The position numbers and the translations under genes were made by a program. The notes under the pieces are model-generated. The model searched no databases and was not told where the DNA came from. It was given only the letters and a program-made list of their open reading frames with translations. Below, one piece after another: positions 30,897 through 64,000 of a stretch of 64,000 nucleotides of DNA; the stretch's first letter is position 1; every line of letters starts with the position of its first letter. Origin of the DNA: an uncultured Clostridia bacterium (GTDB taxonomy: Bacteria; Bacillota; Clostridia; Christensenellales; UBA1242); the NCBI GenBank assembly GCA_945921465.1, contig CAMEKS010000001.1, positions 2,745 through 66,744 of the forward strand. The letters are read 5' to 3'.

Positions 30897-30990
30897 AAAT
30901 TTTCCTCCATTTCTCAACAAAACTTAATTTATTTTCAAAAACAGCATTATTTCTCTTGACAAAATTTATATTTTTATATAAACTTACCCT

Positions 30991-33737: not shown

Positions 33738-33812
33738 TGGAGTGTAGCCAAGCGGTAAGGCCCGGGATTCTGACTCCCGTATGCGTAGGTTCGAATCCTA
33801 CCACTTCAGCCA
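33738..33812 (+). tRNA. tRNA-Gln (anticodon CUG), CCA encoded
   Basis: Hand-folded cloverleaf. Acceptor stem TGGAGTG/CACTTCA, anticodon stem CGGGA/TCCCG with loop TTCTGAC, T arm GTAGG-TTCGAAT-CCTAC, discriminator G followed by CCA. Confidence 0.9.
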
Positions 33813-47153: not shown

Positions 47154-47573
47154 ATTATTTTGACCTAATGTAAAATTTTATATTTTTTTTAGCAAGTTAT
47201 ATTGTGACGGCCTTGCAATCAATATACTATACCAATATTAGACACACTGGTCAGTATGTACCACTATAGATTAAATGATATATATATACAAATATATATT
47301 ATCATAACATAGGTATCAAAGTCCACAATTTTTGTTGTTATTTTGATGGCTTAACAGATAAACGAATTTTAGATAGTTCAACGGACGATTATTTATTTTT
47401 CAGGCGAAGATAGTCGACTTGAATACAAGGTGGTAAGAATTAGACTACAGTTCAATTATGTATTTAAGGGCAATAAGCGCAAGTGTAATATTGTCGAGCA
47501 TTGCCAAAATTGTTTGCCAACGGGTAAGGAAATATGAGATAATATAATGTGTCTTTTGGGGACAAATGTGATT

Positions 47574-47818
47574 TGATATTGAATTAACATCAGCTTTGCT
47601 TGAATATACTCTCGCTTTGCTTCGTGTGCATTCATACAAAACTTCCGATAATATAATCTATGTGATGTTGCTTTGCTCACTTTGTTCGCAAATCAATTTG
47701 CTAAATGCAAATCCGTTGTCACAACGGCATCCTGATTGAATTAACATCGGTTATATACAAGAGAACCTATCGGGTATGTTTGTTTATAACTTCCGATATT
47801 ATAATTATTCGGAATGTA
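47574..47818 (+). repeat. Structured modular repeat, locus A (variant X module, then L, then X); flank 47440-47573 may hold degenerate remnants
   Basis: Hand alignment to loci B, C and D. Shares TTTGCTCACTTTGTTCGCAA, GGCATCCTGATTGAATTAACATC, ..GTTTGT.T.TAACTTCCGATATTATAAT. The strand given is the one favoured by G-U pairs. Confidence 0.8.
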
Positions 47819-47892
47819 TGAAACATATTGTAGAACAATGAAATTACAAAAGCCAAAGGCACAATGTGCAACAAAGGAAATTGAAGAAAATT

Positions 47893-50076
47893 ATGGAAAT
47901 TAATGAATTATTGGCTCAAGAATTTAGTATGTCACTTAATCACGCAAACAATATTATTGCGCTGATGGATGAGGGGGCGACTATCCCATTCATCGCCAGA
48001 TATCGTAAGGAGATGACGGGCAGTTGTGACGATCAGACTTTGCGTGCGTTTTACGACAGGCTTAATTACTTAAGGAACTTAAATGAGCGTAAAGAATCGG
48101 TTATTGGCATTATTACCGAACAGGGCAATATGACCGAAGAAATAATGAATGCATTGAACAATGCCGCCACCCTAACCGAGATAGAAGATATATATAGACC
48201 ATTTAAGCCAAAGCGAAAGACGAGGGCGACAGTGGCTGTGGCAAAGGGTTTGCAACCATTAGCGGACGCAATTATTAAGCAGGACAAGTCGGTTGATTTG
48301 ATGGCATTGGCAGAGACTTTTGTGTCTGAAGAGAAAGATGTTAAGAGTTCCGAGGAAGCATTGCAAGGTGCTAAGGACATTGTGGCAGAGTCTATTTCGG
48401 ACAACGCAAATTTGCGAAAAATTTTGCGTGAAATGCTGCAGAAAAAAGGTTTTGTGCAATGCAAGTTGGTCGAAGAAGAAGAGAATGCTCCTACTTATGA
48501 GATGTACAAAGATTATAATTCACCAATTGACAAAATGCCATCTCACCGAATTTTGGCAATCAATCGTGGAGAGAATGAGAAGTGCTTGAAGGTCAGCTTG
48601 ACATTGAATGAAGAATTGGCATTGGGGGAGATATACAAAGAGACTATTAAGAAAAATTCGCCATATGAACAATTGTTAAAAGAAATATGTCAAGATTCTT
48701 ATGACAGGTTGATTTTCCCTAGTATCGAGAGAGAAGTAAGAAATGAAATGACCGATCGTGCTAACGAGCAAGCAATTAAGATGTTTGAGGTTAATCTAAG
48801 ACCTCTTTTGATGCAGGCACCTCTAAAAGATAAAGTTATTTTGGGATTGGATCCTGCATACAGAACAGGTTGCAAGATTGCAGTTATAGATAATCACGGC
48901 AATGTGCTAGATACAGCTGTTGTATATCCCACACCACCCCAAAACAAGATAGAAGAAGCAGAGGCCACTCTAACCAAATTGATTATGAAACACGATGTTG
49001 ACATAATATCTATTGGCAACGGAACTGCGACCAAAGAGAGTGAAATTTTTGTAGCCAATTTGATTAAGAAGTTGCCAAGGAAAGTGACATATGCAGTAGT
49101 TAATGAAGCAGGTGCATCGGTATATTCTGCTAGCAAATTAGGTGCTGCTGAATTCCCTACATTTGATGTTGCATTGCGTAGTGCGGTTAGTATTGCTCGT
49201 AGGTTGCAAGATCCATTGGCAGAGTTAATTAAAATAGATGTCAAATCAATTGGCGTAGGACAATATCAGCACGATATGCCTCAGAACCGATTAACCGAAG
49301 TGTTGGAGGGAGTGGTAGAAGACTGCGTTAACTCGGTTGGCGTAGATGTTAATACTGCCAGCCCTAGCCTGCTAGGCTATGTGTCGGGACTTAATAGCGG
49401 AATAGCCAAGAGCATAGTAGAGTATCGCAAAGAGAATGGCAAAATTAACAATAGGCAGACGCTATTAAAAGTTAACAAATTGGGAAATAAAGCATTTGAA
49501 CAATGTGCAGGTTTCTTGCGAATAGTAGACGGTGATAATGTGCTTGACAATACCGGAGTACATCCTGAGTCTTATGAGGCGGCAAATAAATTGTTGAAAT
49601 TATTCGGAATGACTACCAGCGATGTATCTAACGGAAATGTAAAACATTTGGCAGAGTTGGTTGCTGCTAAGGGCGAAGAGTCAGTTGCCAAGGAGATTGG
49701 TGTAGGAGTTCCTACTTTGACAGATATTGTTAACGACTTAATTAAACCAGGTAGAGATATAAGGGATGAGTTGCCTAAGCCAGTACTGAAGAGCGAATTG
49801 TTAGGAATAGAAAATTTGAAACCTGGTATGGTTATAGATGGCGTAGTGCGTAATGTAATTGATTTCGGTGTATTCGTGGATATATCTGTGCATCAAGATG
49901 GCTTGGTTCATATATCTGAGATTAGCAAAGATTATATCAAGCACCCAAGTGAAGTATTGAAGGTTGGCGATATAGTTACTGTTAAGGTAATAGGAGTAGA
50001 CCTGGCCAAGAAACGAATATCTCTAACCATCAAGGGAGTCACCGAAGAAGACCTTGCTAACAAGGTGGGGAATTAA
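47893..50076 (+). CDS. tex: Tex-like transcription accessory protein (YqgF/HhH/S1 domains)
   Basis: N-terminus TIPFIARYRKEMTG, a YqgF-like core and a C-terminal S1 domain (GMVIDGVVRNVIDFGVFVDI...GLVHISE). Start at ATG 47893 (Met10 of the track ORF). Confidence 0.9.
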   Translation: MEINELLAQEFSMSLNHANNIIALMDEGATIPFIARYRKEMTGSCDDQTLRAFYDRLNYLRNLNERKESVIGIITEQGNMTEEIMNALNNAATLTEIEDIYRPFKPKRKTRATVAVAKGLQPLADAIIKQDKSVDLMALAETFVSEEKDVKSSEEALQGAKDIVAESISDNANLRKILREMLQKKGFVQCKLVEEEENAPTYEMYKDYNSPIDKMPSHRILAINRGENEKCLKVSLTLNEELALGEIYKETIKKNSPYEQLLKEICQDSYDRLIFPSIEREVRNEMTDRANEQAIKMFEVNLRPLLMQAPLKDKVILGLDPAYRTGCKIAVIDNHGNVLDTAVVYPTPPQNKIEEAEATLTKLIMKHDVDIISIGNGTATKESEIFVANLIKKLPRKVTYAVVNEAGASVYSASKLGAAEFPTFDVALRSAVSIARRLQDPLAELIKIDVKSIGVGQYQHDMPQNRLTEVLEGVVEDCVNSVGVDVNTASPSLLGYVSGLNSGIAKSIVEYRKENGKINNRQTLLKVNKLGNKAFEQCAGFLRIVDGDNVLDNTGVHPESYEAANKLLKLFGMTTSDVSNGNVKHLAELVAAKGEESVAKEIGVGVPTLTDIVNDLIKPGRDIRDELPKPVLKSELLGIENLKPGMVIDGVVRNVIDFGVFVDISVHQDGLVHISEISKDYIKHPSEVLKVGDIVTVKVIGVDLAKKRISLTIKGVTEEDLANKVGN

Positions 50077-50236
50077 CCAAAAAACTATTTTATTAATATC
50101 GTAAGATATTTATAATCGCACCTGCAAAGAAGATTGTATATAGCTGATGTTAATTAATTTTTGGATATTATTGTCCTGCTGCAGATTTTTGATAAATTGC
50201 AATAGAATTAGAAATAGAATATTTGAATAATATACA

Positions 50237-50278
50237 AAAGCCATTATTAGAGAGTGCTCTAATAATGGCTTTTTTTTG
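50237..50278 (+). terminator. Rho-independent terminator after tex
   Basis: GCCATTATTAGAG-agtg-CTCTAATAATGGC followed by T8. Confidence 0.85.
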
Positions 50279-50345
50279 TTACTATATTTGATGACCTACA
50301 ATTTTATTTAAGTCGGTTGTGTTTTAGCAAATGGGGAATATATAT

Positions 50346-50828
50346 TTATTGAGTCTTTTTGTTAAGATATGCCATTAGTTTAGCAGTGGCATCGCTGCTA
50401 GTATGGGTAGATTCTTCTTTGTTAACTAGCCTTTCAATTTCCCACATACATTTTACAAATCTATTTAATTTGTAAGTCGTAGTCTCGGTGTCTGCATCGA
50501 GCGTAATTATGCCATCTGCAAATTGGCACTTGTATTTATTACAGGCGTCTGCGACAATGTCATCAATTCTAACTACGTTGGCAAATTTTTCTACCACTGC
50601 GCCAAGGTCTGTAATGGTGTATTCGTCGGATGTGCTTAATAGTCCCATATTTTCTTGCTCTTCGCTACGCTCTAGCACTACTTCGGTTTCATTTTCTATC
50701 TTAATTGCGATAGTTATAGCGGTGCCGTCTTCGTAGTAAGCGGGATATGCCAACATATATAGCCCATTGCCATAATTAAGCTTATATATGCTTTGATTAA
50801 TTTTTTCTAAAATATCATTTATTTTCAT
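50346..50828 (-). CDS. Hypothetical protein, possibly DUF1828-like
   Basis: 160-aa ORF. N-terminal pattern ...YPAYYEDGTAITIAIKIE...EYTITDLGAVVEKF recalls DUF1828 proteins as I remember them. Weak call. Confidence 0.5.
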   Translation of the reverse strand: MKINDILEKINQSIYKLNYGNGLYMLAYPAYYEDGTAITIAIKIENETEVVLERSEEQENMGLLSTSDEYTITDLGAVVEKFANVVRIDDIVADACNKYKCQFADGIITLDADTETTTYKLNRFVKCMWEIERLVNKEESTHTSSDATAKLMAYLNKKTQ

Positions 50829-51237
50829 AATTACCCCATTATGTTTTAATTTTATGATAACAATTTATAATAACAAATCTACGAGATGTTAACTTGCTTA
50901 TGCGTCTGCCTGTATCTCAATCTGACAATTGCAATTTTGATATAGTAGCGGCACACTGAGTTAATAACCTAGAGATATATACAAGTAATGCTACGCATAT
51001 ATCTATTTATAGTTACCAAAAAATATTAATTTAATATCATATTAATATTATAAACAGACAATCAAAATATTATCTGTTTCCTCAGTTGCTCACATTTTGC
51101 ATAGCGACAATCATCAAATCATAATATTACTTATGATTGCAAGTATACAGTTACAATTATATTCTATCACAATATTTGCAGTAATATATAGCAGTAATTC
51201 ACTATTTTTAATTTTTTCAATTTGATAAATCAAGGTC

Positions 51238-52365
51238 TTAGTTGCGTTCCATTTCTTCTTTGGAATGGAAGAATGTCGCTATCTGCGGAGCGGTAAACGA
51301 AGCGCTTGATTTTTTTAATTCAGCATTGCTATTGATTCGGTCAATTTGCTCGTGACATCTACCTTCGAATGAACCCATTTTGCCAGAATATTTTAGTAGT
51401 GGAATAACAGTTTCGGAGATTGGATTGAAGCTATCTGCACTGCTAAATACGGGCTCGCTACTAGGTATATTTGCAGCGTTGCGAACAGCAAGTAGTGTCT
51501 GGCCAAAAGTCAACTCTACATCTCTACCTACACTCATTGCATCTGTGTGGTTATATGAATAAGGTTTGAACGCTACTCCCATAGCGTTAGGTAAATGAAT
51601 ATGAGAACCATATACATCTACGCCGTGTTTTAATACTTGACTATTGCTTTTGTCTAAGAAATTCTTGTGTGGTGCTACTGGGTTATAATCACATCGATAT
51701 AATTCTACAGGGATTAATGTGTCTTCGCCAACATCATTGTGACCATTAATAAATGCCTTAAGTGTGGTTGATGCACCAGTAACTGGGTAGTCAACAGTGC
51801 TGCCTGTTATACGGAACTGGCTGCCTGCAATAGGAATAGCGATGGTTTCCTTAAATAATACTAAGTTGCCTTCGACATTACCGGCGAACCAATTGGTATA
51901 ACAATCTAGATATGTATCTGTTTTGCGTACCGTATCGCCATATAGATCGGCTTTTGGAACAGAGTGGAAATATGTAGTTGGGCACAACTTTATTTTGTCG
52001 CACGCCAACATTTTCTCATACTGTAGTTGAGTAAAAGGCATAGGATATACTTGTTTGTCTTCTTTTACATACTTTAGAGTTTGCGGGATGGAATGCATAG
52101 ACATATCGTTACTCAATCCATAACCTTTGGATATTTTTAATCCTAACTTACCGCTTACAAAACTGCTTATTTCATCCAAACATTTTTGTACATGAGTCAA
52201 GCACCAATCTACATATTCTTGCGATCGATTTTGTTTATAATAATTAGTCTTGTTGTTGTCGTTAATTAGGCTTTGGCGAAAAGCGGTTGTGCAAAGTTCA
52301 TTCCATTCTTTTTCGCTTAAATTTTTTTTGGTTAGTGTGGTTATGTCTATTTCTTTTTTAGTCAT
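51238..52365 (-). CDS. Hypothetical protein (375-aa ORFan) downstream of repeat locus B
   Basis: Clean ORF with RBS GAGGG. No motif I recognise, and no RuvC/HNH/RT/recombinase signatures. Confidence 0.6.
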   Translation of the reverse strand: MTKKEIDITTLTKKNLSEKEWNELCTTAFRQSLINDNNKTNYYKQNRSQEYVDWCLTHVQKCLDEISSFVSGKLGLKISKGYGLSNDMSMHSIPQTLKYVKEDKQVYPMPFTQLQYEKMLACDKIKLCPTTYFHSVPKADLYGDTVRKTDTYLDCYTNWFAGNVEGNLVLFKETIAIPIAGSQFRITGSTVDYPVTGASTTLKAFINGHNDVGEDTLIPVELYRCDYNPVAPHKNFLDKSNSQVLKHGVDVYGSHIHLPNAMGVAFKPYSYNHTDAMSVGRDVELTFGQTLLAVRNAANIPSSEPVFSSADSFNPISETVIPLLKYSGKMGSFEGRCHEQIDRINSNAELKKSSASFTAPQIATFFHSKEEMERN

Positions 52366-52547
52366 TCTCGCCCTCGCTTATATATTAGGATTTTATCATA
52401 TTCGCTTACTAATTGCAAGTAGTTATTTTATAATTGAGACGTCAAAAAGACTACTAGTATAATCAATTTTCAATGATTTGTTCGTTATAATAATTCGAAA
52501 TATAAATAAGACTTTTTGAGTTAATACAAATATAAATGCATTATTAA

Positions 52548-52924
52548 CGGTAGTGCATATTGGGCGATAGCCCCATATTGTATAGATAATAAGTATATAT
52601 CATCCAATGCAGCTAGTCGTAGATTGTGCTCGAGGAAATATTATCCAAAGTAGTCGCAAGACACCTTGAGATAATATGACGAAGGAAACAATCTATGTGT
52701 CAGACGACGCTAGTCGGCTGGGATGCACGGTAGTGCATATTGGGCGATAGCCCAATTACACATAGATTATAATATCGGAAGTTAGAGACAAACGTACCCG
52801 ATAGGGTCGCTTGTATATAACTGATGTTAATTCAATCAGGATGCCGCTAGTATTAGCGGTAGGTTGCGATTAGCGAACTGAGTTGCGAACAAAGTGAGCA
52901 AATCTACATCTCATAGATTATAAT
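52548..52924 (-). repeat. Structured modular repeat, locus B (L-X-Y-Z-truncated Y, read on the minus strand)
   Basis: The reverse complement aligns base-for-base with locus D over about 330 nt (L, X, Y, Z and the first half of the second Y). See findings. Confidence 0.9.
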
Positions 52925-52926
52925 TG

Positions 52927-52955
52927 TTGACAAAATGCTAAAATGTTGCTAAATT
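52927..52955 (+). promoter_or_regulatory. Sigma-A type promoter candidate for glnS (TTGACA-17-TAAATT)
   Basis: TTGACA 52927-52932, an exact 17-nt spacer, and TAAATT 52950-52955, 34 nt upstream of the glnS ATG. It starts immediately after repeat locus B. Confidence 0.6.
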
Positions 52956-52988
52956 ATTAACATAATTTTGCAACATTTGCGAGGAAAT

Positions 52989-54659
52989 ATGTGGGATAAT
53001 ATTGTACCAGATAATTTTATAGAAGAAGAGATACTAAAAGATTTGAAATCGGGAAGAGCCAAAGAGGTGATTACTCGTTGTCCGCCAGAGCCAAGTGGCT
53101 ATTGGCATATTGGTCATTGCAAAGCATGGATAATAGATTTTGAGACGGCGAAGAAGTTCGGTGGATATACTAATTTGCGTATGGACGACACCAACCCTAC
53201 CAAAGAGGATGGTGACTTTGCGAACTCTTATGTTAATGACTTAGAATGGCTAGGATATACGCCTAAGAATGTAATCTATGCTAGCGAAGCATATTTTGAA
53301 GATATATATAAAATTGCCGAAGATATGATACGTGACGGCAAAGCATATGTATGTGAATTGTCGGCAGAAGAGGTGTCTCAGACCAGGGGTACATTGTCGG
53401 AGCCTGGTATCGAGAGCCCATATAGGAACCGAAGCGTAGAAGAGAATTTGAAGTTGTTTCACGATATGCGAGATGGCAAGTTTGAAGATGGAAAGGCGAC
53501 ACTTCGTGCCAAGATAGATATGGCTCATCCTAATATGAATATTAGAGACCCTGTGATGTATCGGGTAATGAGAGCAACTCACTACAAGACGGGCGACAAG
53601 TGGTGCATCTATCCTATGTATGATTTTGCTCATCCTATGGAGGATGCTCTTGAGGGTGTGACTTATAGTCTATGCGATATCAGTTTTGAGGATCATAGGC
53701 CTCTATATGACTGGTTTATTGCAAATGGTTGGAAAGGTGAATATCCTCCTAGGCAGATTGAATTTTCTAAACTTAATTTAGAGAATGTTTTACTAGGCAA
53801 GAGATATCTTAAGAAGTTAGTTAACGAAGGCAAGGTAATGGGTTGGGATGACCCAAGATATTTAACAATTGTTGGGATGCGTAGGCGTGGTTATACAGCA
53901 GAGGCAATCAAGGAATTTATTAAGTCTTTGGGTTTGTCGAAATGTGATAGCACCATTCCATTCAATGCTCTAGAATATTATATTCGTGCCGACCTTAATA
54001 TGAAGGCGACTCGTGCAATGGCTGTGCTTGATCCTCTAAAGGTTGTAATAACCAATTATAGTGGAAGCGAAGAAATAGAAATTGCAAATAATCCTAATGT
54101 TGAGAATGCGGGCTCACATACTTCGCGATTCTCTAATACTATATATATTGATGCCGATGATTTCTCACTTAACCCTCCTCCAAAATACAATAGATTGGTG
54201 CGAGGTGGAATGGTTAGATTGAAAGGTGCATACATTATTCGTTGTAATGATGTTGTATACAAAGACGATGGCTCTATTGATCATTTGGTTTGTGAATATT
54301 TACCTAACACCAAGAGTGGAAACGACACTAGCGGAATTAAGGTTAAGGGAACAATACATTTTGTTTCACAAGACAACTGCACCGAAGTCACTATTCGAAA
54401 TTTCAAGAATTTAATCAAAGATGAGTATTTAGACCCAAGCAAAGCGTTGGCAGATGGTGTAGATGTAGATGAACTGCTTACCCCAGACTCGCTAACTGAA
54501 ACAACAGCGTTGGTAGAGAATTATTTGCTAAGTGCTAAACCTGAAGATAAATTTCAATTTATGCGCAAAGGTTATTATACACTAGACAAAGATTCAACTG
54601 CAGATCACTTAATATTTAATAACACTATTTCTCTAAAAGACGGATACAAGCCTCAATAA
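52989..54659 (+). CDS. glnS: Glutamine--tRNA ligase
   Basis: Class I HIGH motif (PEPSGYWHIGHCKA), GlnRS-type catalytic and beta-barrel anticodon-binding domains, and typical length. ATG 52989 follows GAGGAAAT (the track ORF starts at an upstream TTG). Confidence 0.9.
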   Translation: MWDNIVPDNFIEEEILKDLKSGRAKEVITRCPPEPSGYWHIGHCKAWIIDFETAKKFGGYTNLRMDDTNPTKEDGDFANSYVNDLEWLGYTPKNVIYASEAYFEDIYKIAEDMIRDGKAYVCELSAEEVSQTRGTLSEPGIESPYRNRSVEENLKLFHDMRDGKFEDGKATLRAKIDMAHPNMNIRDPVMYRVMRATHYKTGDKWCIYPMYDFAHPMEDALEGVTYSLCDISFEDHRPLYDWFIANGWKGEYPPRQIEFSKLNLENVLLGKRYLKKLVNEGKVMGWDDPRYLTIVGMRRRGYTAEAIKEFIKSLGLSKCDSTIPFNALEYYIRADLNMKATRAMAVLDPLKVVITNYSGSEEIEIANNPNVENAGSHTSRFSNTIYIDADDFSLNPPPKYNRLVRGGMVRLKGAYIIRCNDVVYKDDGSIDHLVCEYLPNTKSGNDTSGIKVKGTIHFVSQDNCTEVTIRNFKNLIKDEYLDPSKALADGVDVDELLTPDSLTETTALVENYLLSAKPEDKFQFMRKGYYTLDKDSTADHLIFNNTISLKDGYKPQ

Positions 54660-54752
54660 CATTTTTGGATAAATATGGCATAGTATGTAGTGTATTGTGT
54701 GCACAGTAACCTGTTATTAGTGGCGAGGTCAAAAACTTGTCAGTTTAGAAAA

Positions 54753-54790
54753 ATATCAGACATAGGCAATTCCTGTGTCTGATATTTTTG
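54753..54790 (+). terminator. Rho-independent terminator after glnS
   Basis: ATATCAGACATAGG-caatt-CCTGTGTCTGATAT followed by a T-run. Confidence 0.8.
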
Positions 54791-54991
54791 TATTAATTGT
54801 GGTTAATTGTATTTTTTAATCTGATTATAATTGATTAGCGAATTATCCGAGATATTGTGAATAAATATTAATTCGTAGAAGATAAATCAAAAGAATTAAA
54901 ATGCTGGTTAGTGGTAAAAAGTATACATTAAGATGTAATTATGACAGTAGATTATGCAGTAAATGGTGGCTTTTTGGCAAATAATCAGCAG

Positions 54992-55207
54992 TTATCCACA
55001 ATTTCACAAGTTTTGTTTATTAATTTTTTTGAATTATTATGCAAAAATTAAAAATTTGAAAAATTTTTGTGAAAAAATGTCGAAAATCACCAAAGTTATC
55101 CACTTATCCACCACTTATCCCCGAGTTATCCACAGCCAATGTTCGTAAAATGTTTTATAACGACGTGTTTTTATGTCACAAAGATGTGTTTTGAATAGTT
55201 ATCCACA
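54992..55207 (+). promoter_or_regulatory. DnaA-box cluster with AT-rich spacer (candidate oriC segment or DnaA-titrating cluster)
   Basis: TTATCCACA at 54992-55000, 55126-55134 and 55199-55207. TTATCCACT 55096-55104, TTATCCACC 55104-55112 and TTATCCCCG 55115-55123. All are on the same strand. 55001-55095 is AT-rich with reiterated GAAAAAT-type motifs. Confidence 0.75.
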
Positions 55208-55223
55208 TAGTTGTACACAAGTT

Positions 55224-56699
55224 TTATGGACATACATATGTTGGGATTGTGTCAAATAAGAAATCCGTACCCATATTTAGTGTGGCAGTTTCGTCATCTA
55301 TTATTGGAATATCTGGGATATTGTCTTCTACGCCTTCGATCACAATACCCGCTTGTGGCTGATATATTTCGTGTCGTATTTCTTTGCGGTCTATTACCTC
55401 ACCATTGCGAGAGGTAATAAGATATGATTTGACATCAAATCCTCCTCTAGGGTAGGTTAATCTATAAGTCTCGCCCTTAAACAAAACCTTGTCTGTATAT
55501 TCCTTATTCACGTCTGGAACTATTCGATCAGGCAGTGGTGATAAGGTGGCTAATGTTTCGCTCTCTGTGCTGTATTCTACGTCTAGTGGGTAAGAGTATA
55601 TCTCTACAGTAACGTCATCTGCAGTGCTGCTGGTTTTGATAAATATTGGGTGCTCAGATGTGTTAGTAAATTTTAGGTCTGAAGCGCCGGATACCATTGC
55701 ATCTAGGGCTAGAGGTACATATCTAACTGGGAGCGTGTGCTTATGAACTTCGTCTATTTGTATGCCAGATAGCAGTAGTGCATTGTATAGGGTGGTGCTG
55801 GCTTGGCACACACCTCCGCCAATTCCGTCAACAAACCTGCCATTTTGTATAATTGTAGCGATTTGATATCCATTATCTAGTGTATGTGGCGAGGTGACTT
55901 CGTTAAAAGAAACTGACTGGTTTGGTTCTATTCTCATTCCGTTAAATTTGGATAGTGCTAATTTTACATTGTTTTTTCTTCCACCAGTACTGTCACCGAC
56001 CGATGTGGAGAATTTGGCGATTCTATTGGTTAATGATTGATTGTATTCTTCACTAATTTTAGGTTCGGCATCTTCTAGCTCTAGTTCAATCAATATGTTA
56101 TTAGTTATAGCAAATTGCTTATTGATATTGCTATACAATTTGTCCCTATTTATTACTTTTCCACTAGCAGAAGGCGTAATCTGCCACATATTTGCCTCTG
56201 TCGGTGAAAATGTAATGGTAGAATCTATGGCAGGTGTCTCTATGGACTGACATATTTCTTCTATCTTTTGGTCTAGACCTTGAAAAATATAGTTAAATGC
56301 AATAGTTGTGGAACCGTCGGAAGTTGAGATTAATCCCATAGACTCTAACTTAGAAGCATAGTCGCTGTTAGAATCAGATAATTCTAATATAGATCTAACA
56401 TCAGGATTGATAGTGTAATCATCTTGGTCTATGATAAATATTTGGTCGCCTTTTTTTAGCGTCAGACTGAAGTTGTTGGCTTTGTCTGCAATGTATGACG
56501 ATACTTTTTCATATGCTTCGGCGCTAGTAATTCCTTTTAGATTAATTCCATTAATTTGGGTGTTGAATTCGCTTGAGTACGTATTGCGAAAAACATTGAG
56601 TTTGCATAGTAATATTATTAATACAACTGCTATAGCAATTATTAGTGTAGTTATAATCATCCAAAATGTTCGTGATTTTTTGCTCTTTGATGTAGACAT
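55224..56699 (-). CDS. VanW-family protein with N-terminal TM anchor
   Basis: TM helix FWMIITTLIIAIAVVLIILL and the VanW core GIGGGVCQASTTLYNALLLSG. Confidence 0.8.
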   Translation of the reverse strand: MSTSKSKKSRTFWMIITTLIIAIAVVLIILLCKLNVFRNTYSSEFNTQINGINLKGITSAEAYEKVSSYIADKANNFSLTLKKGDQIFIIDQDDYTINPDVRSILELSDSNSDYASKLESMGLISTSDGSTTIAFNYIFQGLDQKIEEICQSIETPAIDSTITFSPTEANMWQITPSASGKVINRDKLYSNINKQFAITNNILIELELEDAEPKISEEYNQSLTNRIAKFSTSVGDSTGGRKNNVKLALSKFNGMRIEPNQSVSFNEVTSPHTLDNGYQIATIIQNGRFVDGIGGGVCQASTTLYNALLLSGIQIDEVHKHTLPVRYVPLALDAMVSGASDLKFTNTSEHPIFIKTSSTADDVTVEIYSYPLDVEYSTESETLATLSPLPDRIVPDVNKEYTDKVLFKGETYRLTYPRGGFDVKSYLITSRNGEVIDRKEIRHEIYQPQAGIVIEGVEDNIPDIPIIDDETATLNMGTDFLFDTIPTYVCP

Positions 56700-57089
56700 A
56701 TTGTTAATACCTCGATGTACTTATCTTTTGTTATTATTGTGTATTTTTTTATACAAATTATGCAAAGGATGCGAGTAATAATAGTGTAATAGTTATATTA
56801 CATATTTTATATAAAATTGTTTTTACAGTAGTTATTAGTCCATTATATGACAATTGTAGATTTTGGGTGGTTTATAATATTTAGATTAATTTAGCAAAAC
56901 ACAACAAAAGCAATATATAGAATAGGTGTCAATATTTAGGATGTATATCTATATGCAAAAGAGTAGTATTACTGATACGATCTATAAACTTTTAATTCCT
57001 TTCTGATATAAAATAAGATTAAGAATCCTAGTTATAATTGTAGCAACATAATACTAGACTATATAAGTTATCAAGAGAATAAATGTACT

Positions 57090-57323
57090 TTATTTATTAT
57101 TGCCTTGCTTCTCAATCATAGACTTAAGCACTTCACGCTTAGCGTCTTCTTTTATTAACCTTATTATCCCTACGAATAGCGAAATGTAGTCCTGCTCGGT
57201 TATGGCGGGTGCAGATGGAAAAGTAAGAATAGATTTGTTTATGGGGCGGAATCTATATATAATATTATTACCTGTATTTGGTGAATTATGATTTCTAAGT
57301 TTGTTGGTTTTGAATAATTTCAT
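57090..57323 (-). CDS. Small hypothetical protein (77 aa)
   Basis: Isolated ORF in a 1.2-kb AT-rich intergenic stretch. Weak RBS and no motif. Coding status uncertain. Confidence 0.3.
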   Translation of the reverse strand: MKLFKTNKLRNHNSPNTGNNIIYRFRPINKSILTFPSAPAITEQDYISLFVGIIRLIKEDAKREVLKSMIEKQGNNK

Positions 57324-57896
57324 TTTTACCTGCTTTGTAATAATTTATTAATTTAAGTTATAGTTAATTTGATGCATAGTAGTTTTGCGATAATTCAACT
57401 GAGGCGCAAATGACAGCCAAGCAAATCAAAAGAATATAGTGTGTCATACAATAATATTTGGTGTTGACCATACCGGATTGTAGTTTTTTTAGATTTTAAT
57501 ATCGTAAGCTATATACCAATGCGGACAATATGTCATTTGTATAAAAACTGATAATTTGATTTAATTAAATAATTATTGATAATCTAAAAAAATATGTGAC
57601 ATTATCTTTATTTATTAATAACACGCAATAATTGTTGGCCGATTACTTTAATTTAATACCAAACCAATTTGACAAAAAGATATAGATTGTGTCGAATAAG
57701 TAGTCCTATATTATTAGTTATTAGCATAATAATATAATAGTTGAGCGTGCTTGCTTGATTATAATTGTAACATTTAAGAATAATTAGATGTGTTGGTTGT
57801 TAACCAAATTATAATCAATTGGCATAATAAAATTATTAAGTTTACGCACCAATAGTATAAACTCAGCATTAATTAAAGAAAAGTAAGGAGAAAAAT

Positions 57897-58835
57897 ATGA
57901 AATCAATTTGCCACTTTGTGTCTACAATAGAATATGACTTGTTGATTAATGGCGAATATATAGCTAGAGGGAAAGAAGACAGTATAGATGTGGTAATAAC
58001 CAGTGCCGAAGTGAGTGTAATGTGTGTGCCTCTTGCGACAGGGTATGGGATAGTATCTGCCAAGGTGCAGAATATCAAAAACTCTATTCTAGTCAATAGC
58101 AATGATATATCAGTTGTTCCTATGGGTAGAGGACACTGGCAGATAGAGATCAATTTTCGAAAAACATATGTGGACGCGGATTGTGATATTATTGCTACAT
58201 CAATATCCGGCAAAAACAATATTTGTATATATAACAATCCTATGGGTGTAATTGATATTTCAACTGGTTCTCTTCTTAGATTAAGAAAGAATTGTGACAA
58301 AATAGTCGCTGCCGAAATTGACATTGTGTCTGGGTGCAATGTAATAAAGTGTCAACTTATTGACAACAAGTATTATATTATTGTCATAGATGACAAATGT
58401 AAAATACTTTTTGATACTATATGTAATAGTTATGAAACTAATGAAAATAAGTGTAAAACTATTGCAGAAGTATGTGATATAGCAGGCCATGGAGTTGTCA
58501 AAACATTTGATATGACAGACAAAACTATAGATTGTTATGCCGTGTATACTGGAGAAGTAAGATATGCCAGTAGTGATAGATTAGTGCCTATGGCTATGCT
58601 GCAGAGTCTAATGGTCGGTGATAATAAATTAGCAAAATCATATTTGTGTGCAGAAATGCAAAGTATAAGTGATGATAAATTGCAACAATATTTTGGCAAA
58701 TTTGATAGAGTAGTTTATAACAGATATATTGCTGATGGCACAATTAATTATACGGTATGTGGGGAGGATTATCGTAATTACGATTTTGTAATTAAGAATG
58801 GAAGAATAGATGATATAGTAGAGGTTGTAGGATAA
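57897..58835 (+). CDS. Hypothetical protein (312-aa, Cys-rich ORFan)
   Basis: Strong RBS AAGGAG. No signal peptide and no motif I recognise. Confidence 0.6.
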   Translation: MKSICHFVSTIEYDLLINGEYIARGKEDSIDVVITSAEVSVMCVPLATGYGIVSAKVQNIKNSILVNSNDISVVPMGRGHWQIEINFRKTYVDADCDIIATSISGKNNICIYNNPMGVIDISTGSLLRLRKNCDKIVAAEIDIVSGCNVIKCQLIDNKYYIIVIDDKCKILFDTICNSYETNENKCKTIAEVCDIAGHGVVKTFDMTDKTIDCYAVYTGEVRYASSDRLVPMAMLQSLMVGDNKLAKSYLCAEMQSISDDKLQQYFGKFDRVVYNRYIADGTINYTVCGEDYRNYDFVIKNGRIDDIVEVVG

Positions 58836-59005
58836 AGTATAAATAAAATGCATATACAAGCATAGAAATACTTTGATAAAATCAATGACTTGTAGTAAAA
58901 TAAACATAGGCGATGTTGTTTTGCAATTATTAATATTTAAGTAATATTTATTCAATGCTTGTTGCAACTGTGACATCGCAAGTTGGTCTATCTATAGTTA
59001 AGTAT

Positions 59006-59155
59006 GTATAATATCTGAAGTTAGAGACAAACATACCCTAAGGGATCGCTTATATATAACTGATGTTAATTCAATTGGGATGCCGCAATCATTTGCTGAG
59101 GGTTGTGACAGAGACCACAGAGGCGAGCGAAAACGTAAGAAAATCTACATTGCAT
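59006..59155 (-). repeat. Structured modular repeat, locus C (L-X only, read on the minus strand)
   Basis: The plus strand reads ...CTGAAGTTAGAGACAAACATACCCTAAGGGATCGCTTATATATAACTGATGTTAATTCAATTGGGATGCCGC..., homologous to the X and L modules of locus B. The L part is the most diverged copy. Confidence 0.8.
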
Positions 59156-59214
59156 AAATTAAATTATAGATTTAATTGATAATAACTATAGATTTTTAAC
59201 TACAAGGGGAAGAA

Positions 59215-59898
59215 ATGTTATATATTATATTAGGGGTAATAATCTTATACTGCATAATTTTTGTGGTATCTATATTTAATTCTAATGATACACTCCAAAA
59301 ATTATATGCTAAGTATGTGAATATTCCCAATAACAAAAATTGGCAAGGAATGAATGTGGCTTTTGACGCCAGAAGATATTTTGGATTAGATGTAAAAGTG
59401 GCTATGCGCAAAGGAATAATGACTGATGCGTATAGCATTAAGGATAGAATAATAATCATTAGCGAGGATGTCTGTTATAACAATTCGATTGCGGCAGCGG
59501 CCATTGTGGCACACGAGGTCGGACACGCTGTACAGCACAAGAATAAATCCTTATTATTAGGACTTGTTAGATTTACCACTAAGTTTTGCGATATATTTTG
59601 TCGATTTGTTTTGCCTTTGTTATTGGCTGGTGCAATATTGCGACTAGCCGAAATTAATGTGGAGGTTGGCAATATATTATTAATAATTGCATTATCTCTA
59701 TGTGGGTTGAATATTATAGACAACTTCTTAAATATTCCATTAGAGAGTGGTGCTAGTAGAATAGGTTTTCGCTATCTAAAAGATAATAAAATTATATCTA
59801 AAAAAGATTATGGCAAAGTTAAGAGATTATTGAGTGTAGCAAGTAAAACATATATGGCACATTGGCTAAGAACATTGTTGCCAATTAGGAGGAAGTGA
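59215..59898 (+). CDS. Membrane zinc metallopeptidase (YugP-like family), paralog 1
   Basis: HEVGHAVQH zinc motif flanked by TM helices. RBS AAGGGGAAG. Confidence 0.8.
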   Translation: MLYIILGVIILYCIIFVVSIFNSNDTLQKLYAKYVNIPNNKNWQGMNVAFDARRYFGLDVKVAMRKGIMTDAYSIKDRIIIISEDVCYNNSIAAAAIVAHEVGHAVQHKNKSLLLGLVRFTTKFCDIFCRFVLPLLLAGAILRLAEINVEVGNILLIIALSLCGLNIIDNFLNIPLESGASRIGFRYLKDNKIISKKDYGKVKRLLSVASKTYMAHWLRTLLPIRRK

Positions 59899-59899
59899 T

Positions 59900-60607
59900 A
59901 TGATAGAATACTATGCAGCGTTGGTTGTATTTGTGCTTGCGTTGATTATAGGAACGTATGCCAATATCAAGGTTAGTACATGTTATAACAAATATTCTAA
60001 GGATGTGGCACAATCGGGGATTGTCGCTAGTGTGTTGGCAAGGCAATTGCTAGATGCATCGAATTTGAATGATATAAAAATTGCGAGAGTGTCTGGCAAT
60101 ATGACAGACTACTACGACCCACGCAAGAAAGTAATTGCGTTATCTGAGGGCGTATATGATAGTGGCTCAATTGCTGCACTTGGCATAACCGCACACGAGT
60201 TTGGGCATGCTTTGCAATACAAAGACGGCAATGCCCTTGTGAAATTAAGGAATATTCTCGTACCAATTTCTAATTTGATGTCTACGTTGGTTTGGCCAAT
60301 GCTAATAATTGGTGTATTACTAGATTTTGTATGGTTCTCTGAATCAACAATTGGACTTATTTTCATAATGGTGGCTGTAGGGGCATTTGCATTAAGTACA
60401 TTACTTAGTCTGATTACTCTGCCAATAGAGAGAGATGCCAGTAGGCGAGCGGTTAGGGTGTTGGAGCAAACGGGTACATTGACCGAAGAAGAGCTGGTTG
60501 GTGCCAAAGCGATACTAAGTGCCGCAGGTCTAACATATGTGGCGGGGCTGTTGTCGTCGGTTGCAAACTTGCTAAGGATATTGGCAATATTTGGCAGAAA
60601 CAAATAG
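59900..60607 (+). CDS. Membrane zinc metallopeptidase (YugP-like family), paralog 2
   Basis: HEFGHALQY zinc motif with the same architecture as the upstream paralog. RBS AGGAGG. The ATG lies 1 nt after the upstream stop. Confidence 0.8.
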   Translation: MIEYYAALVVFVLALIIGTYANIKVSTCYNKYSKDVAQSGIVASVLARQLLDASNLNDIKIARVSGNMTDYYDPRKKVIALSEGVYDSGSIAALGITAHEFGHALQYKDGNALVKLRNILVPISNLMSTLVWPMLIIGVLLDFVWFSESTIGLIFIMVAVGAFALSTLLSLITLPIERDASRRAVRVLEQTGTLTEEELVGAKAILSAAGLTYVAGLLSSVANLLRILAIFGRNK

Positions 60608-60792
60608 AGATAATATTGCAAAAGGCTATATTAACAATAGAAAAAGATCTCAGCAATTCGTAATAAAAATAGTATTAGACACGAACAAAAGTCAAAAAGT
60701 TAATAAAAATTGGCAATTATTATGAATTTGTTGACATTAAGTGGGGATTTGTTGGTATTTATAACATAGATGTGTTAGCATTTGAACAAAAA

Positions 60793-60828
60793 AACCAAGG
60801 CGATTATTAGGTTGCCTTGTTTTTTTTG
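60793..60828 (+). terminator. Rho-independent terminator candidate after the metallopeptidase pair
   Basis: CAAGGC-12 nt loop-GCCTTG followed by T8. Confidence 0.6.
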
Positions 60829-60887
60829 ATGCAATTATATGTATTATAATATTTGATCGAATACAATAACTTATGAAAAGTTGAGTT

Positions 60888-61338
60888 GGTTTGCCTTAGT
60901 CTGCAATTCAATTTGCTATCGCAAACACCGCCATTACTAGCGGCATCCTGATTGAATTAAAATCAGTTATATACAAGCGATCCATACTGGATACGTTTGT
61001 CTCTAAATTCCGATATTATAATCTATGTGTAATTGGGCTATCGCCCAATATGTACAGCCGTGCATCCCAGCCGACTAGCGTCGTCTGACACGTAGATTGT
61101 TTCCTTCGTCATATTATCTCAAGGTGTCTAGCGACTACTTTGGATAATATTCCTCGGGCACAATCTATTACTGGCTGCAGTGAATAGAATATATTTTTTA
61201 TCTTCACAATAGGGGGCTATCGCCCAATATGCACTATCGTGCATCCCAGCCGACTGGCGTCGTCTGACACATAGATTGAATTAACATCAGTTATATACAA
61301 GCGACCCATATTGGGTACGTTTGTCTCTAACTTCCGAT
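60888..61338 (+). repeat. Structured modular repeat, locus D (longest copy: L-X-Y-Z-Y-X)
   Basis: Contains two X modules (60948-61019, 61278-61338) and two Y modules (61020-61098, 61211-61277) as direct repeats around a unique Z segment (61099-61210). Confidence 0.9.
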
Positions 61339-61424
61339 AATATGTCATATTGCGATTAATGTTTTTGAAAAAGTAAGGGGGAATAGATTAAAAGTTATCC
61401 TAGTTATAATTGTTCTAGACTTTT

Positions 61425-62285
61425 TCAGTGTATTTTCTGGTCTTTGTTATTTGAAAAGCAGTACTCTGTTATCACATTAGATAGTGTAACTAATTGTGCA
61501 GCCGATAACGCTTCGCCACGTATTCCTTGAGGGAGTCCGCTTATAGATAGGATATTAGTGGTTGTGTCAGAGTCAAATCCGAAAGACGATTTTAGATTAT
61601 TAGCCAATGTCTTGCGACGCATTGCAAATGCAGCCCTGATAGTACGACGAAGAATTGATTGATCTACAACATCATATTTGTTAGGCACTATATCTATCCT
61701 AACGATTGCACTATCTACATTTGGTGCAGGGGTGAACATATGCCTACTAATGCGTTTCACAATTCTGGCATTGCCCATGGTTGCGATAGCGGCGGTTATT
61801 GCTCCATAGTTAGCAGTATTTTCTTTTGCGACCAGCCGCTCTGCAACTTCTAATTGTACCATAATGGTTAATGATTGTAGTTTAGTAGCATTGTCTAGGA
61901 ACTTAAAAATTATTGGCGTGGTTATGTAATAAGGAAGGTTTGCAATCATAGAATAGTTGCCATTGAAGTTAGCTTCGATGTCAGCCATCGTTTGTAGCAT
62001 AATATCTCCAAAAACTAATTTGACATTGGGTTTGGATGCAAACTTGTTGGTTAGGTACGGCTGCAGATTAGTATCTATCTCATAACTAACTACGTACTTA
62101 GCAGTATCGGATATTACATCAGTCAGTGTGCCTGCACCAGTGCCAATTTCTAGAACCTGCGATTGATTATCTATTCCCGCACATGCTACTATAGATCGTA
62201 GTAAATTTGTGTCAAAAATAAAATTTTGACCAAATTTCTTATTAAAATTGAAATTATATGCTTTTAATTCGTCTAGTATAGCCAT
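61425..62285 (-). CDS. rsmA: 16S rRNA (adenine1518/1519-N6)-dimethyltransferase
   Basis: KKFGQNFIFD, the SAM motif VLEIGTGAGTLT and NLPYYITTPI are typical of KsgA/RsmA. Confidence 0.92.
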   Translation of the reverse strand: MAILDELKAYNFNFNKKFGQNFIFDTNLLRSIVACAGIDNQSQVLEIGTGAGTLTDVISDTAKYVVSYEIDTNLQPYLTNKFASKPNVKLVFGDIMLQTMADIEANFNGNYSMIANLPYYITTPIIFKFLDNATKLQSLTIMVQLEVAERLVAKENTANYGAITAAIATMGNARIVKRISRHMFTPAPNVDSAIVRIDIVPNKYDVVDQSILRRTIRAAFAMRRKTLANNLKSSFGFDSDTTTNILSISGLPQGIRGEALSAAQLVTLSNVITEYCFSNNKDQKIH

Positions 62286-62433
62286 AATGCTCCTATATTT
62301 TTTTTATTTATGCGATTAATTAATCTAAAACAATTTACCTACAACCAGCGGCATTAATTAAAAATATAATATTCTGTGCCATAATTAATATTTAAGAAAC
62401 AATGTTAGAATAACTGTATAATATTTTCTATGA

Positions 62434-63219
62434 TTATTCGTTGAACTTAGGGAATATTCGCCTTAAGTTATTATGTGTTACGCTAGCTAGAGTTTCTAAT
62501 TCTACTCCCTTGATTTCACATACTTTCTCAGCAATTATCTTGATGTTTTTTGGCTCATTTGTTGTACCACGAATTGGTTCGGGAGCCATAAATGGACAAT
62601 CGGTCTCTAACACTATATCAGACAGTTCTGCTGCTTGTACTACCTCATTCAATTTTTTAGAATTCTTAAATGTTATTACTCCACCTACCCCAATAGCGAA
62701 CCCTAATTTCTTAAATATCTTAAATGAATCTACTGATTCGCTAAAGCAGTGAATTACTCCGCCGTGATTGAGATATTGTCTGTTGGCATTAAGGATATCA
62801 ATCATATCTTTGCATGCATCTCTTAGGTGAATCATAATAGGCAAATTTAATTTGTCTGCCAGTTTAATCTGAGATATTAATACTTCTTGCTGCTTTAACT
62901 TAGTGGCAACATCTTCAGAAGATATGCGATGATAGTCTAGTCCGATTTCCCCAATGCCAATAACTTTTGGATTAGTTGCCAATTCTGCCAACCTTGCCTC
63001 AGTCTCCTGATTATAATCTGCGATATCGTCTGGATGTATGCCTATAATGGCATAAATGTGAGAATACTTATTTGCTATTTCTACCGATTGTATAGAAGTC
63101 TCTAGATTATATCCCACTGCAAAAACATTGGAAATACCATTGTATTCCCAATGTTGCTGTAATATTGATATATTATTAAAGAATTCGTCTGTAAGATGTG
63201 CGTGCGAATCTATTAGCAT
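62434..63219 (-). CDS. tatD: TatD-family metal-dependent DNase/hydrolase
   Basis: MLIDSHAHL, GEIGLDY, and the HLRDA and VLETDCPFMAP motifs. Lies in the conserved metG-tatD-rsmA order. Confidence 0.9.
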   Translation of the reverse strand: MLIDSHAHLTDEFFNNISILQQHWEYNGISNVFAVGYNLETSIQSVEIANKYSHIYAIIGIHPDDIADYNQETEARLAELATNPKVIGIGEIGLDYHRISSEDVATKLKQQEVLISQIKLADKLNLPIMIHLRDACKDMIDILNANRQYLNHGGVIHCFSESVDSFKIFKKLGFAIGVGGVITFKNSKKLNEVVQAAELSDIVLETDCPFMAPEPIRGTTNEPKNIKIIAEKVCEIKGVELETLASVTHNNLRRIFPKFNE

Positions 63220-64000
63220 ACAACACTGCCGTCCTTCATAACATCGATAGGGGAGATTAGACTAAGATCATCACCATTGCAAGCACACAAAATCATACCT
63301 TCGGAAAGAATACCACGTAGTTTTACAGGTCTCAGATTGGTTACAACAACTACTTGCTTGCCGACAATGTCTTCTGGGTTGTAATGCTTTGCAATTCCGC
63401 TGACGATTGTGCGATTGACACCATTAATTCGGACGGTGTTCTTAAGTAGTTTGTCGGCCTTCTCAACTTTCTCGCTAGCGATAATTGTGCCCACCTCTAA
63501 TTTGATTCTGTCGAAGTCTTCAATAGTAATTTCTTGTATTTCGTCTGTTTTTGTCTGCTCGGTCTTGACTTCTTTGGTAGTGTCGGGGGAGGTGTTGGAC
63601 TCTTGATTAAGGAATTCCAACTCTTTGGCAATGTCTAGTCTAGGGAAGATTGATTCTCCCTTAGTGACAACTCCTCCGTAATTCTTAATATCAAACACAA
63701 TGGCACTATCTATGGTTTTTTTGTCAACAGATGTACCCAATTTGTCAAAAATTTTATTCGGAATTTCTATTAAGAATGCCTGTAGGTAACAAGTGCAAAT
63801 TCTTATAGTCTCGGCCAGAGTATATAGAACAGTTGCTAGTCTATCCTTATCCGTCTTTGCTAGCACCCAAGGAGTGGTAATATCTATATATTTGTTGGCA
63901 TATCTGATCACATCAAATATTTCTCTTAGTGCGATGTCAACTCGCTCATCATCCATAGCGGTTTCTAGTTTGGTGTTAAGACCATTACACATATCTATCA
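63213..64000 (-). CDS. metG: Methionine--tRNA ligase, C-terminal part (anticodon-binding helices plus Trbp111/EMAP-like tRNA-binding domain); N-terminus lies beyond the right window edge
   Basis: ANKYIDITTPWVLAK and a C-terminal OB-fold (IEDFDRIKLEVGTIIASEKVEKADKLLK...VVVVTNLRPVKLRGILSEGMIL). The frame stays open to position 64000, so the track Met at 63992 is internal. Confidence 0.88.
   Translation of the reverse strand, partial: IDMCNGLNTKLETAMDDERVDIALREIFDVIRYANKYIDITTPWVLAKTDKDRLATVLYTLAETIRICTCYLQAFLIEIPNKIFDKLGTSVDKKTIDSAIVFDIKNYGGVVTKGESIFPRLDIAKELEFLNQESNTSPDTTKEVKTEQTKTDEIQEITIEDFDRIKLEVGTIIASEKVEKADKLLKNTVRINGVNRTIVSGIAKHYNPEDIVGKQVVVVTNLRPVKLRGILSEGMILCACNGDDLSLISPIDVMKDGSVVC

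Follow-up and report, generated by a model that had tools for sequence, protein, structure and literature searches.

We analysed a window of 64,000 nt from contig CAMEKS010000001.1 of an uncultured Clostridia bacterium, in which a first-pass annotation had singled out a 79-nt cloverleaf-like module, here called Y, as a stand-alone structure. By Pfam and protein comparison, the window carries genes for Tex, GlnRS, KsgA, TatD, MetRS, AddAB and RecR, a set that points to a chromosome of the Clostridia; positions 53832-64000 are identical to contig JAIFIH010001161.1 of the metagenome-assembled genome (MAG) GCA_019973165.1, and the nearest KsgA relatives of the window are only 67% identical. Instead of standing alone, Y proved to belong to a larger mosaic repeat, some copies of which are truncated or decayed: it supplies the four-way junction of an interspersed, non-coding unit that has two domains and measures ~146 nt. 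Self-comparison placed mosaics of this repeat at four intergenic loci, A (47655-47805, plus strand), C (52547-52925, minus strand), B (59005-59156, minus strand) and D (60870-61345, plus strand). All copies of the family (at least four loci and four decayed copies) lie between 47.5 and 61.4 kb, with none in the other 47 kb, and the lists of open reading frames (ORFs) show no gene inside the unit.

The sequence and coordinates originally given for the two complete Y copies, C and D1 (Table 1), were correct, and the four-way junction is both the minimum free energy and the centroid structure of each in ViennaRNA. Copy C consists of an 11-bp closing helix around hairpins of 6-7, 6 and 8 bp, the last with one C.U mismatch, all with 4-nt loops. 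It folds at -37.0 kcal/mol and copy D1 adopts the identical fold at -34.7 kcal/mol, none of 200 shuffles being equally stable in either case. The substitutions reported between copies, A>G in the closing helix and C>U in hairpin 2, are all present, as are the loop variants UACC/AGCC/UAUC and UAGC/UGGC. Other details needed amending: the C.U mismatch in hairpin 3 is constant among the window copies but is a C-G pair in the homologue described below; the partial copy at 61199-61277 keeps three hairpins but has lost the 5' closing arm, of which only AUCU can pair, together with the outer 2 bp of hairpin 1; and the partial copy at 52548-52577 is a Y fragment, but one that holds just hairpin 1 and half of hairpin 2.

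The combination of variable loops and maintained stems had been taken as the mark of a functional fold. On their own, the window copies are uninformative in this respect, as no pair has changed on both sides and the stems differ by just two substitutions, both transitions, against four loop changes (small counts throughout). Because any Watson-Crick transition gives G.U on exactly one strand, two G.U events on the same strand have p = 0.5. The fold is nevertheless maintained, as seen in a homologue from another genome. A covariance model (R1) was built from the three window Y copies and run on the syntenic regions of KsgA and GlnRS relatives, and it found a compensated Y homologue in L005 (JGI 3300029305; 60 bits, E = 1e-16), whose KsgA is 65% identical to that of the window. 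The homologue (L005:4869-4946) reads AATCTATGTAT-AG-TTGTTC(TATC)GAACAA-T-GAATAC(TATC)GTATTC-TA-GTGCTGTT(TTC)AACAGCAC-ACACATAGATT and has the architecture of the window Y, with junction spacers of 2/1/2/0. In its hairpin stems 23 of the 40 bases (57%) differ from the window, and all 20 pairs are intact and Watson-Crick. Eleven hairpin pairs have changed on both sides; none of 500 shuffles reached the observed values, and slid controls gave 0-4. These pair counts were taken on the model-fitted alignment, and independently of any alignment the three L005 hairpins are perfect palindromes. The closing helix differs from the window at 1 of 22 bases and two UAUC loops are identical, and the junction bases are not conserved (AA/U/CC in the window versus AG/U/UA in L005). 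The compensation amounts to one comparison, of one L005 sequence with the window group, over 11 independent positions. We conclude that the four-way junction is real and evolutionarily maintained.

In the complete unit, TATAA is followed by Y or by a variant of it, V, then by GAATWAAC, by a hairpin domain, Z, and by AATATAA. In its Y form this is TATAA, then AATCTATGTGT, three hairpins and ACACATAGATT, then GAATWAAC, then ATCAGTTA, the distal hairpin and TAACTTCCGAT, and finally AATATAA. V followed by Z occurs at every one of the loci A to D, V starting with AATCTATGTG as Y does. Loci C and D extend further with Y, a filler W and a truncated Y, D closing with a second Z, and the two composites are 91-94% identical over ~300 nt in inverted orientation. 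W itself is made of degenerate family fragments, namely an inverted pair of Z-tail-like GGATAATAT pieces that form a long hairpin and a CGAC-TAGC-TGC remnant of hairpin 3. The same order is found in L005, where Y runs directly into a Z domain and a second unit (13362-13509) consists of V and Z; V of locus A is homologous to L005:13362-13445, in which a 9-10-bp closing helix persists. The consensus fold of the V domain gives support for its last hairpin only. For Z, seven copies yield a long hairpin with a basal helix ATC-AGTTA / TAACT-(TCC)-GAT, an internal loop and a distal stem capped C-UAUC-G; seven pairs have changed on both sides, 92.5% of the cells are paired and none of 500 shuffles reached the covariation score. 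The four decayed Z copies, found by covariance model alone, point to older insertions in other spacers of the same 14-kb neighbourhood.

Between the two genomes, three blocks are near-invariant. The 5' arm is one and the Z tail another, and the third spans the 3' arm, the linker and the Z base. These conserved blocks, about 60 nt beside stems changed by 57%, are mutually complementary, and the distal hairpins vary freely yet stay paired. The basal helices therefore look like recognition sequences and the hairpins like structural caps, and the caps look like features needed only when the element is single-stranded. Overall, we consider it probable that these interspersed repeats form one family and that selection acts on their single-strand fold.

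Some further regularities were observed in the hairpins. Nearly all hairpin tips of Y and Z, in both genomes, carry a C-UANC-G cap (consensus UAUC, GNUA on the other strand), for example at window positions 52736-52741, 52720-52725 and 52703-52708, and the CCGATAA of the Z tail is complementary to the C-UANC-G hairpin loop. A loop-to-tail pseudoknot (CUAUCG with CGAUA) was considered and set aside, as it would be sterically unlikely for 4-nt loops. At alignment columns 28/48 of the Z distal stem all five window copies have G.T and both L005 copies A.C, so that a transition mismatch persists at one position on either strand. The loop and stem of hairpin 3 read TAGCGT, which resembles the CS-6 motif of single-strand replication origins.

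Table 1. Domains, fragments and junctions of the repeat family in the window (CM, covariance model)
Feature	Position	Strand	Basis
Y copy C, complete four-way junction	52690-52768	-	fold z = -8.3; CM R1 108 bits
Y copy D1, complete four-way junction with two G.U substitutions	61020-61098	+	fold z = -7.2; CM R1 104 bits
Y copy D2, three hairpins and 3' closing arm, 5' arm replaced, no closing helix	61213-61277	+	alignments, pair counts, fold z = -1.8
Y fragment, hairpin 1 and 5' half of hairpin 2	52548-52577	-	alignment; CM R1 30.8 bits
V, locus A; 5' arm AATCTATGTG as in Y, other inner hairpins, degenerate 3' arm CATCCTGATT	47655-47737	+	alignments
V, locus C	52834-52919	-	alignments
V, locus B; site and orientation as L005:13362-13445 (between 312/313-aa gene and Zn-peptidase gene)	59073-59156	-	alignments
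V, locus D, degenerate 5' end	60870-60953	+	alignments
Z hairpin domain, locus A; linker GAATTAAC, basal helix ATCAGTTA/TAACT(TCC)GAT, distal hairpin, tail ATTATAA	47734-47805	+	RNAalifold, pair counts; CM R2 88 bits
Z, locus C, continuous with Y copy C	52766-52837	-	CM R2 100 bits
Z, locus B	59005-59076	-	CM R2 88 bits
Z1, locus D, continuous with Y copy D1	60950-61021	+	CM R2 91 bits
Z2, locus D, after Y copy D2	61274-61345	+	CM R2 94.5 bits
Decayed Z upstream of locus A	47577-47656	+	CM R2 39 bits
Decayed Z	50091-50160	-	CM R2 36 bits
Decayed Z	57494-57566	-	CM R2 27 bits
Decayed Z, weak	50958-51026	+	CM R2 21 bits
W, filler between Y copies D1 and D2	61099-61212	+	sequence reading, fold
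W copy in locus C	52578-52689	-	sequence reading
Z-tail/V-head junction, ACTTCCGATAA-TATAAT-CTATGTGATGT	47641-47668	+	best dif-like 28-mer, 22/28
Equivalent junction	52782-52755	-	sequence
Equivalent junction	61006-61033	+	sequence

The ends of the unit follow a common pattern. Every intact 5' end is preceded by TAT, which together with the first AAT gives TATAAT; three of the five solitary 3' ends finish in TATAA, and at tandem junctions a single TATAAT is common to both units. The TATAA at both ends of intact units is the identical sequence at every site. When unit ends are joined, in tandem or right end to left end and in L005 too, they read ACTTCCGATAA-TATAAT-CTATGTGTAAT, which resembles a Firmicutes dif site, its 6-bp AT-rich centre lying between a XerC-type arm and a weaker one of XerD type. 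When all positions of 308 kb were compared with 15 Firmicutes dif variants, the junction at 47641 came out as the single best dif-like site at 22/28, that at 52782 being joint second with 21; none of 40 shuffled windows reached 22/28. The Z tail is identical, at 11 of 11 positions, to the predicted XerC arm of Desulforudis (dif ACTTCCGATAATAGATATTATGTTGCCT) and Macrococcus (dif ACTTCCGATAATATATATTATGTAAACT) (PMC3025954). Indeed, the first 15 nt of the junction are those of the Macrococcus dif, and the right arm keeps TATGT and is otherwise weak. Furthermore, the middle block of the unit, when reverse-complemented, matches the end-to-end junction at 17-19 of 26 positions, so that each unit carries an inverted, imperfect second copy of it. 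A near-palindrome with two facing XerC-arm-like halves, TTCCGATATTATAATTATTCGGAA, is completed by the sequence that borders locus A on the right (window positions 47791-47814).

Related genomes allowed us to assess how the family is distributed. R1 and R2 matches were confined to the window genome and L005, two of the ~11 related lineages sampled (~300 kb); the two models did not find the family in nine other lineages (L002-L004, L007-L010, L034-L042), among them the closest relative of L005, GCA_964434145.1, represented by 35 kb. The spacer between the KsgA and Zn-peptidase genes measures 817 nt in the window versus 47-70 nt in four relatives (L002, L003, L007 and L008), and that between the Zn-peptidase and 312-aa genes 379 nt versus 71-92 nt in relatives without the family. 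Units occur in both orientations relative to the flanking genes and in chains (Z-Y, Z-V and Y-Z), and copies are more alike within a genome than between genomes, including at one shared site (locus B and L005-2). The chains, the truncation, the decay, the patchy distribution and the within-genome similarity fit a mobile or concertedly evolving repeat, not a conserved RNA gene. Judging from the sequences, the best explanation would be a non-autonomous DNA element that is mobile or was so formerly, an explanation to which we give about an even chance, and we are equally divided on whether the unit moves, or once moved, by target-specific insertion.

Under such an explanation, units would insert at TATAA, pile up head to tail and decay in place, and the TATAA repeat would be placed at the expected point of strand exchange. 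The most likely driver would be a tyrosine recombinase of the Xer type, its substrate being either a circle or a folded single strand, as with CTXphi attP(+) or an integron attC. In a circle or tandem, pairing of the junction with the middle block would give a ~26-bp stem mismatched at its centre, the Y hairpins capping one end and the Z distal hairpin the other; the circular junction of a unit would read ACTTCCGATAATATAATCTATGT. This model would explain the conserved basal helices, the caps for which pairing suffices and the TATAA bounding the unit. Xer-type recombination specifically is a tentative suggestion on our part, of fairly low probability. Its complete form, in which the unit is a gene-free miniature integrative element of ~146 nt, a dumbbell with a dif-like stem (Z tail, TATAAT and Y 5' arm against the middle block) that the host Xer inserts at secondary TATAA sites, we regard as doubtful. 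If it were true, no smaller element exploiting Xer would be known, and none before it would have used sites other than dif.

Several observations weigh against mobility, and against Xer in particular. Similarity of the junction to the dif of B. subtilis alone (ACTTCCTAGAATATATATTATGTAAACT; PMC3025954) is 18-20/28, within chance (0.26 such sites per shuffled window). The flanks of solitary units are not dif-like, matching the XerC arm at 2-5 of 11 positions on the left and the XerD arm at 4 of 11 on the right; the sites are ordinary intergenic regions, at least four different ones, and none is a chromosomal dif; and the XerC-like arm is poorly paired in the fold, with a TCC bulge. Composites C and D are one segmentally duplicated composite, not independent insertions. 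One V+Z unit occupies the same site in the same orientation in both genomes, which could mean that a useful element has long been inherited vertically. With Pfam, the 27 ORFs of the window yielded neither a transposase nor a recombinase gene. The family was found in two genomes only, with all 11 compensatory changes in Y coming from one sequence. An integrase near L005-1 was considered and rejected, as it belongs to an island at a tRNA-Glu gene; this tyrosine-integrase island (L005 2795-4269) abuts tRNA-Glu and tRNA-Met and is unrelated to the repeat family.

Among the alternatives, a cis-acting RNA element in neighbouring mRNAs, as described for REP, BOX and ERIC, has a modest chance of being correct. 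The transcript would carry the reverse complement of the sense favoured by the first-pass annotation, and its multi-helix fold would block 3' exonucleases or offer an RNase site in 3' untranslated regions and operon spacers, a role that may coexist with a mobile origin. The favoured sense did not hold up, and no strand preference is established. In 14 of 16 modules it is the reverse complement that gives the slightly more stable fold (for copy C, the opposite strand gives -39.2 kcal/mol and z = -6.6, i.e. it folds at least equally well), and in that sense the loops read C(GNUA)G, a GNNA-type tetraloop. The reverse sense coincides with the transcribed strand at four of the six loci, namely L005-1, between the DegV stop codon and a canonical terminator, locus D, which has the KsgA stop codon on one side and a bidirectional terminator (60796-60819) on the other, and locus B and L005-2, both inside co-directional gene pairs. 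The compensatory changes likewise speak for selection on pairing. However, orientation is mixed, loci A and C lying in divergent promoter regions, and the wobble evidence points both ways: G.U pairs favour the first-pass sense in D1 and the window Z stems and the other sense in L005, where an A.C of Y in the former is a G.U in the latter. Most structured RNAs behave in the opposite way to this family, whose basal helices keep their sequence and show no covariation and whose junction bases vary, and the truncated and decayed copies and the absence from most relatives argue against an indispensable role. Plain duplication combined with usefulness at the RNA level is a possible explanation as well. 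Bidirectional intrinsic terminators, each stem being preceded by an A-run and followed by a T-run, were seen at 60796-60819 and 50236-50273; the former separates the Zn-peptidase operon from locus D and would end the KsgA transcript after the repeats have been crossed. A T-box or other leader upstream of GlnRS was rejected for want of an Rfam match and for its inconsistent orientation.

The same mobile element could instead be moved as single-stranded DNA by an HUH/Y1 transposase, either as a palindrome-associated derivative of IS200/IS605 or in a REP/RAYT-like manner, insertion taking place 3' of the pentanucleotide TATAA and the left and right ends being formed by Y and Z, respectively. We consider this unlikely. 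Hairpins maintained by compensation require a single-stranded form, one pentanucleotide stands at the left flank and the right terminus, chains run head to tail in tandem and the hairpin tips share C-TANC-G, all of which would be in keeping with such a transposase. Yet Pfam detects no Y1 or RAYT gene among the window ORFs, the left and right structures are unlike each other, as opposed to IS608-type ends, and the orientations are mixed within 14 kb, whereas transposons of this type are strand-biased; moreover, the dif-like junction is left unexplained.

We consider it very unlikely that the unit is an independent small RNA gene or a tRNA-like processing substrate, the latter having been suggested from the shape of Y. 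The fold is stable and conserved and TATAAT stands immediately 5' of every intact unit, but there is no consistent -35 box upstream of this conserved TATAAT and no terminator downstream of the unit, and a start downstream of TATAAT would cut part of the 5' arm. In the window, ARAGORN reports only a tRNA-Gln (CUG) at 33738-33812, which is also the sole RNA gene detected. Neither ARAGORN nor the Rfam tRNA model (RF00005) finds anything at the Y copies; with Rfam in gathering and E-value modes there was no match at any Y copy and nothing in 47300-61500, the two matches elsewhere being at chance level. The cloverleaf of a tRNA has an acceptor stem of 7 bp and D and T loops that are conserved. Like it, Y is a four-way junction of ~79 nt, but its closing stem has 11 bp, its three loops are all of 4 nt and it has no D-loop or T-loop motifs. 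The variable junction bases argue against a core like that of a ribozyme or a tRNA, and the truncated copies and patchy distribution do not suit an RNA gene. Y is thus not a tRNA-like RNA gene. Finally, neutral leftovers of local duplication, i.e. chance palindromes with no selected structure, would agree with C and D being one duplicated composite and with all window copies lying within 14 kb, but are contradicted by the 11 compensated pairs and 20 intact hairpin pairs out of 20 in a genome with a KsgA only 65% identical, and by the 60 nt of block sequence kept beside stems changed by 57%, which makes them scarcely credible.

Wider searches yielded no further members. Exact-pattern scans with the Y 3' half and the Z 5' half gave no match each in genome contigs and none each in metagenome contigs, the Z pattern being too strict as L005 differs from it at TTATACGAAAA; in viral contigs two patterns gave none and a third gave 23 chance matches without a Z body. 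BLAST against plasmids and phages gave no match, and a protein search with the 312-aa neighbour returned only the protein itself. In L004, a 17-bit R1 match was rejected as unrelated, being a duplicated tRNA 3' end: at 825-1154 the same tRNA-Glu and tRNA-Met pair is followed ~180 nt downstream by a second tRNA 3' end (CCCCTTGGGACTACCA), which looks like an att remnant and is unrelated to the repeats.

The inverted composites C (52547-52925) and D (60870-61240 for the part V-Z-Y-W-truncated Y) bracket a segment of 8.2 kb with GlnRS, VanW, the 312-aa gene and two Zn-peptidase genes, and could mediate its inversion. Compared with L034 and L007, a block of the 160-aa, 375-aa and GlnRS genes is inverted at window positions 50346-54659, the NfeD and Band_7 genes that lie in relatives between VanW and this block are absent from the window, and the rearrangement breakpoints are near repeat copies. 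The 375-aa protein adjoining locus C (51238-52365) has no Pfam domain and 28-34% identity to its L034 and L005 counterparts; it is fast-evolving, yet its position is conserved across the clade. Elsewhere in the window, a 127-nt direct repeat (73% identity, 15934-16060 and 18499-18625) within a 1543-aa transglutaminase-like ORF is probably an internal protein repeat, and two very large ORFs, 27459-30920 (1153 aa) and 36881-41881 (1666 aa), have no Pfam match, several of their neighbours also being unannotated.

The structured repeat reported here is new, has two domains, is restricted to certain lineages and shows the behaviour of a small mobile element; it is a previously undescribed family in uncultured Clostridia with clear compensatory evolution across lineages. 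It illustrates that a strong intergenic fold with covariation need not mean an RNA gene. Should the Xer proposal be true, the unit would provide a minimal, directly testable substrate for site-specific recombination on folded DNA, as well as a way in which the genomes of gut and rumen Firmicutes could become rearranged locally.

Modular or palindromic interspersed repeats of bacteria, such as BOX, REP/BIME, ERIC and miniature inverted-repeat transposable elements (MITEs) like RUP and Correia, have been reviewed (PMC3184786). Like these, our unit is short, non-coding, intergenic, multi-copy, strongly folded and a mosaic of modules; it occurs in either orientation, is lineage-restricted and inflates spacers. 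Unlike these, it combines a four-way junction with a long hairpin instead of a simple stem-loop, has no sequence match to anything searched, and has basal helices conserved in sequence across genera while the distal stems covary. As in MITEs, the copies are multiple, small, non-coding and intergenic, but terminal inverted repeats are lacking: AATCTATGTGT/ACACATAGATT, an inverted repeat of 11 bp, encloses no more than Y, the unit goes on through Z and its two ends are not inverted copies of each other. REP/BIME are GC-rich palindromes of 20-40 nt with a 5' GTAG, often flanking a RAYT gene. The present unit is of ~146 nt with five helices, and the window has no RAYT or Y1 gene. A single-strand origin of a rolling-circle plasmid was rejected, as it does not fit the multi-copy chromosomal setting.

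The integron attC site offers a further parallel. Like attC, the unit has conserved basal boxes, a distal structure that is variable but paired and unpaired stem bases, it would be expected to function as folded single-stranded DNA, and its sequence differs between lineages with the structure kept. Unlike attC, it has no RYYYAAC...GTTRRRY ends, the order at the Z base, GTTA...TAAC, being the opposite, there is no cassette array, orientation is mixed, no integron integrase lies nearby and the flanking genes are syntenic housekeeping genes. An identity with attC was rejected on the wrong box order.

CTXphi attP(+) is single-stranded DNA folded by the pairing of two inverted att sites; strand exchange needs XerC only and specificity rests on the bases beside the XerC arm, and in TLCphi a degenerate XerD arm is tolerated (PMC4246890). 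As in CTXphi and other integrative mobile elements exploiting Xer (IMEX), the unit has an apparently dif-like XerC arm and central region, a degenerate XerD arm, tandem arrays and no integrase of its own, and like attP1/attP2 its two inverted imperfect copies can pair within a strand around a mismatched centre, where they may serve as att sites. Unlike CTXphi and IMEX, it has ~146 nt, no genes, no replication function and many ordinary intergenic sites, its target flanks are not dif-like and its XerC-like arm is poorly paired. It departs from IMEX in their defining feature, integration at dif, and the resemblance is one of working principle only. What sets the family apart in layout among bacterial repeats is that conserved, complementary basal helices bear freely varying but paired caps and that its joined ends rebuild a dif-like site.

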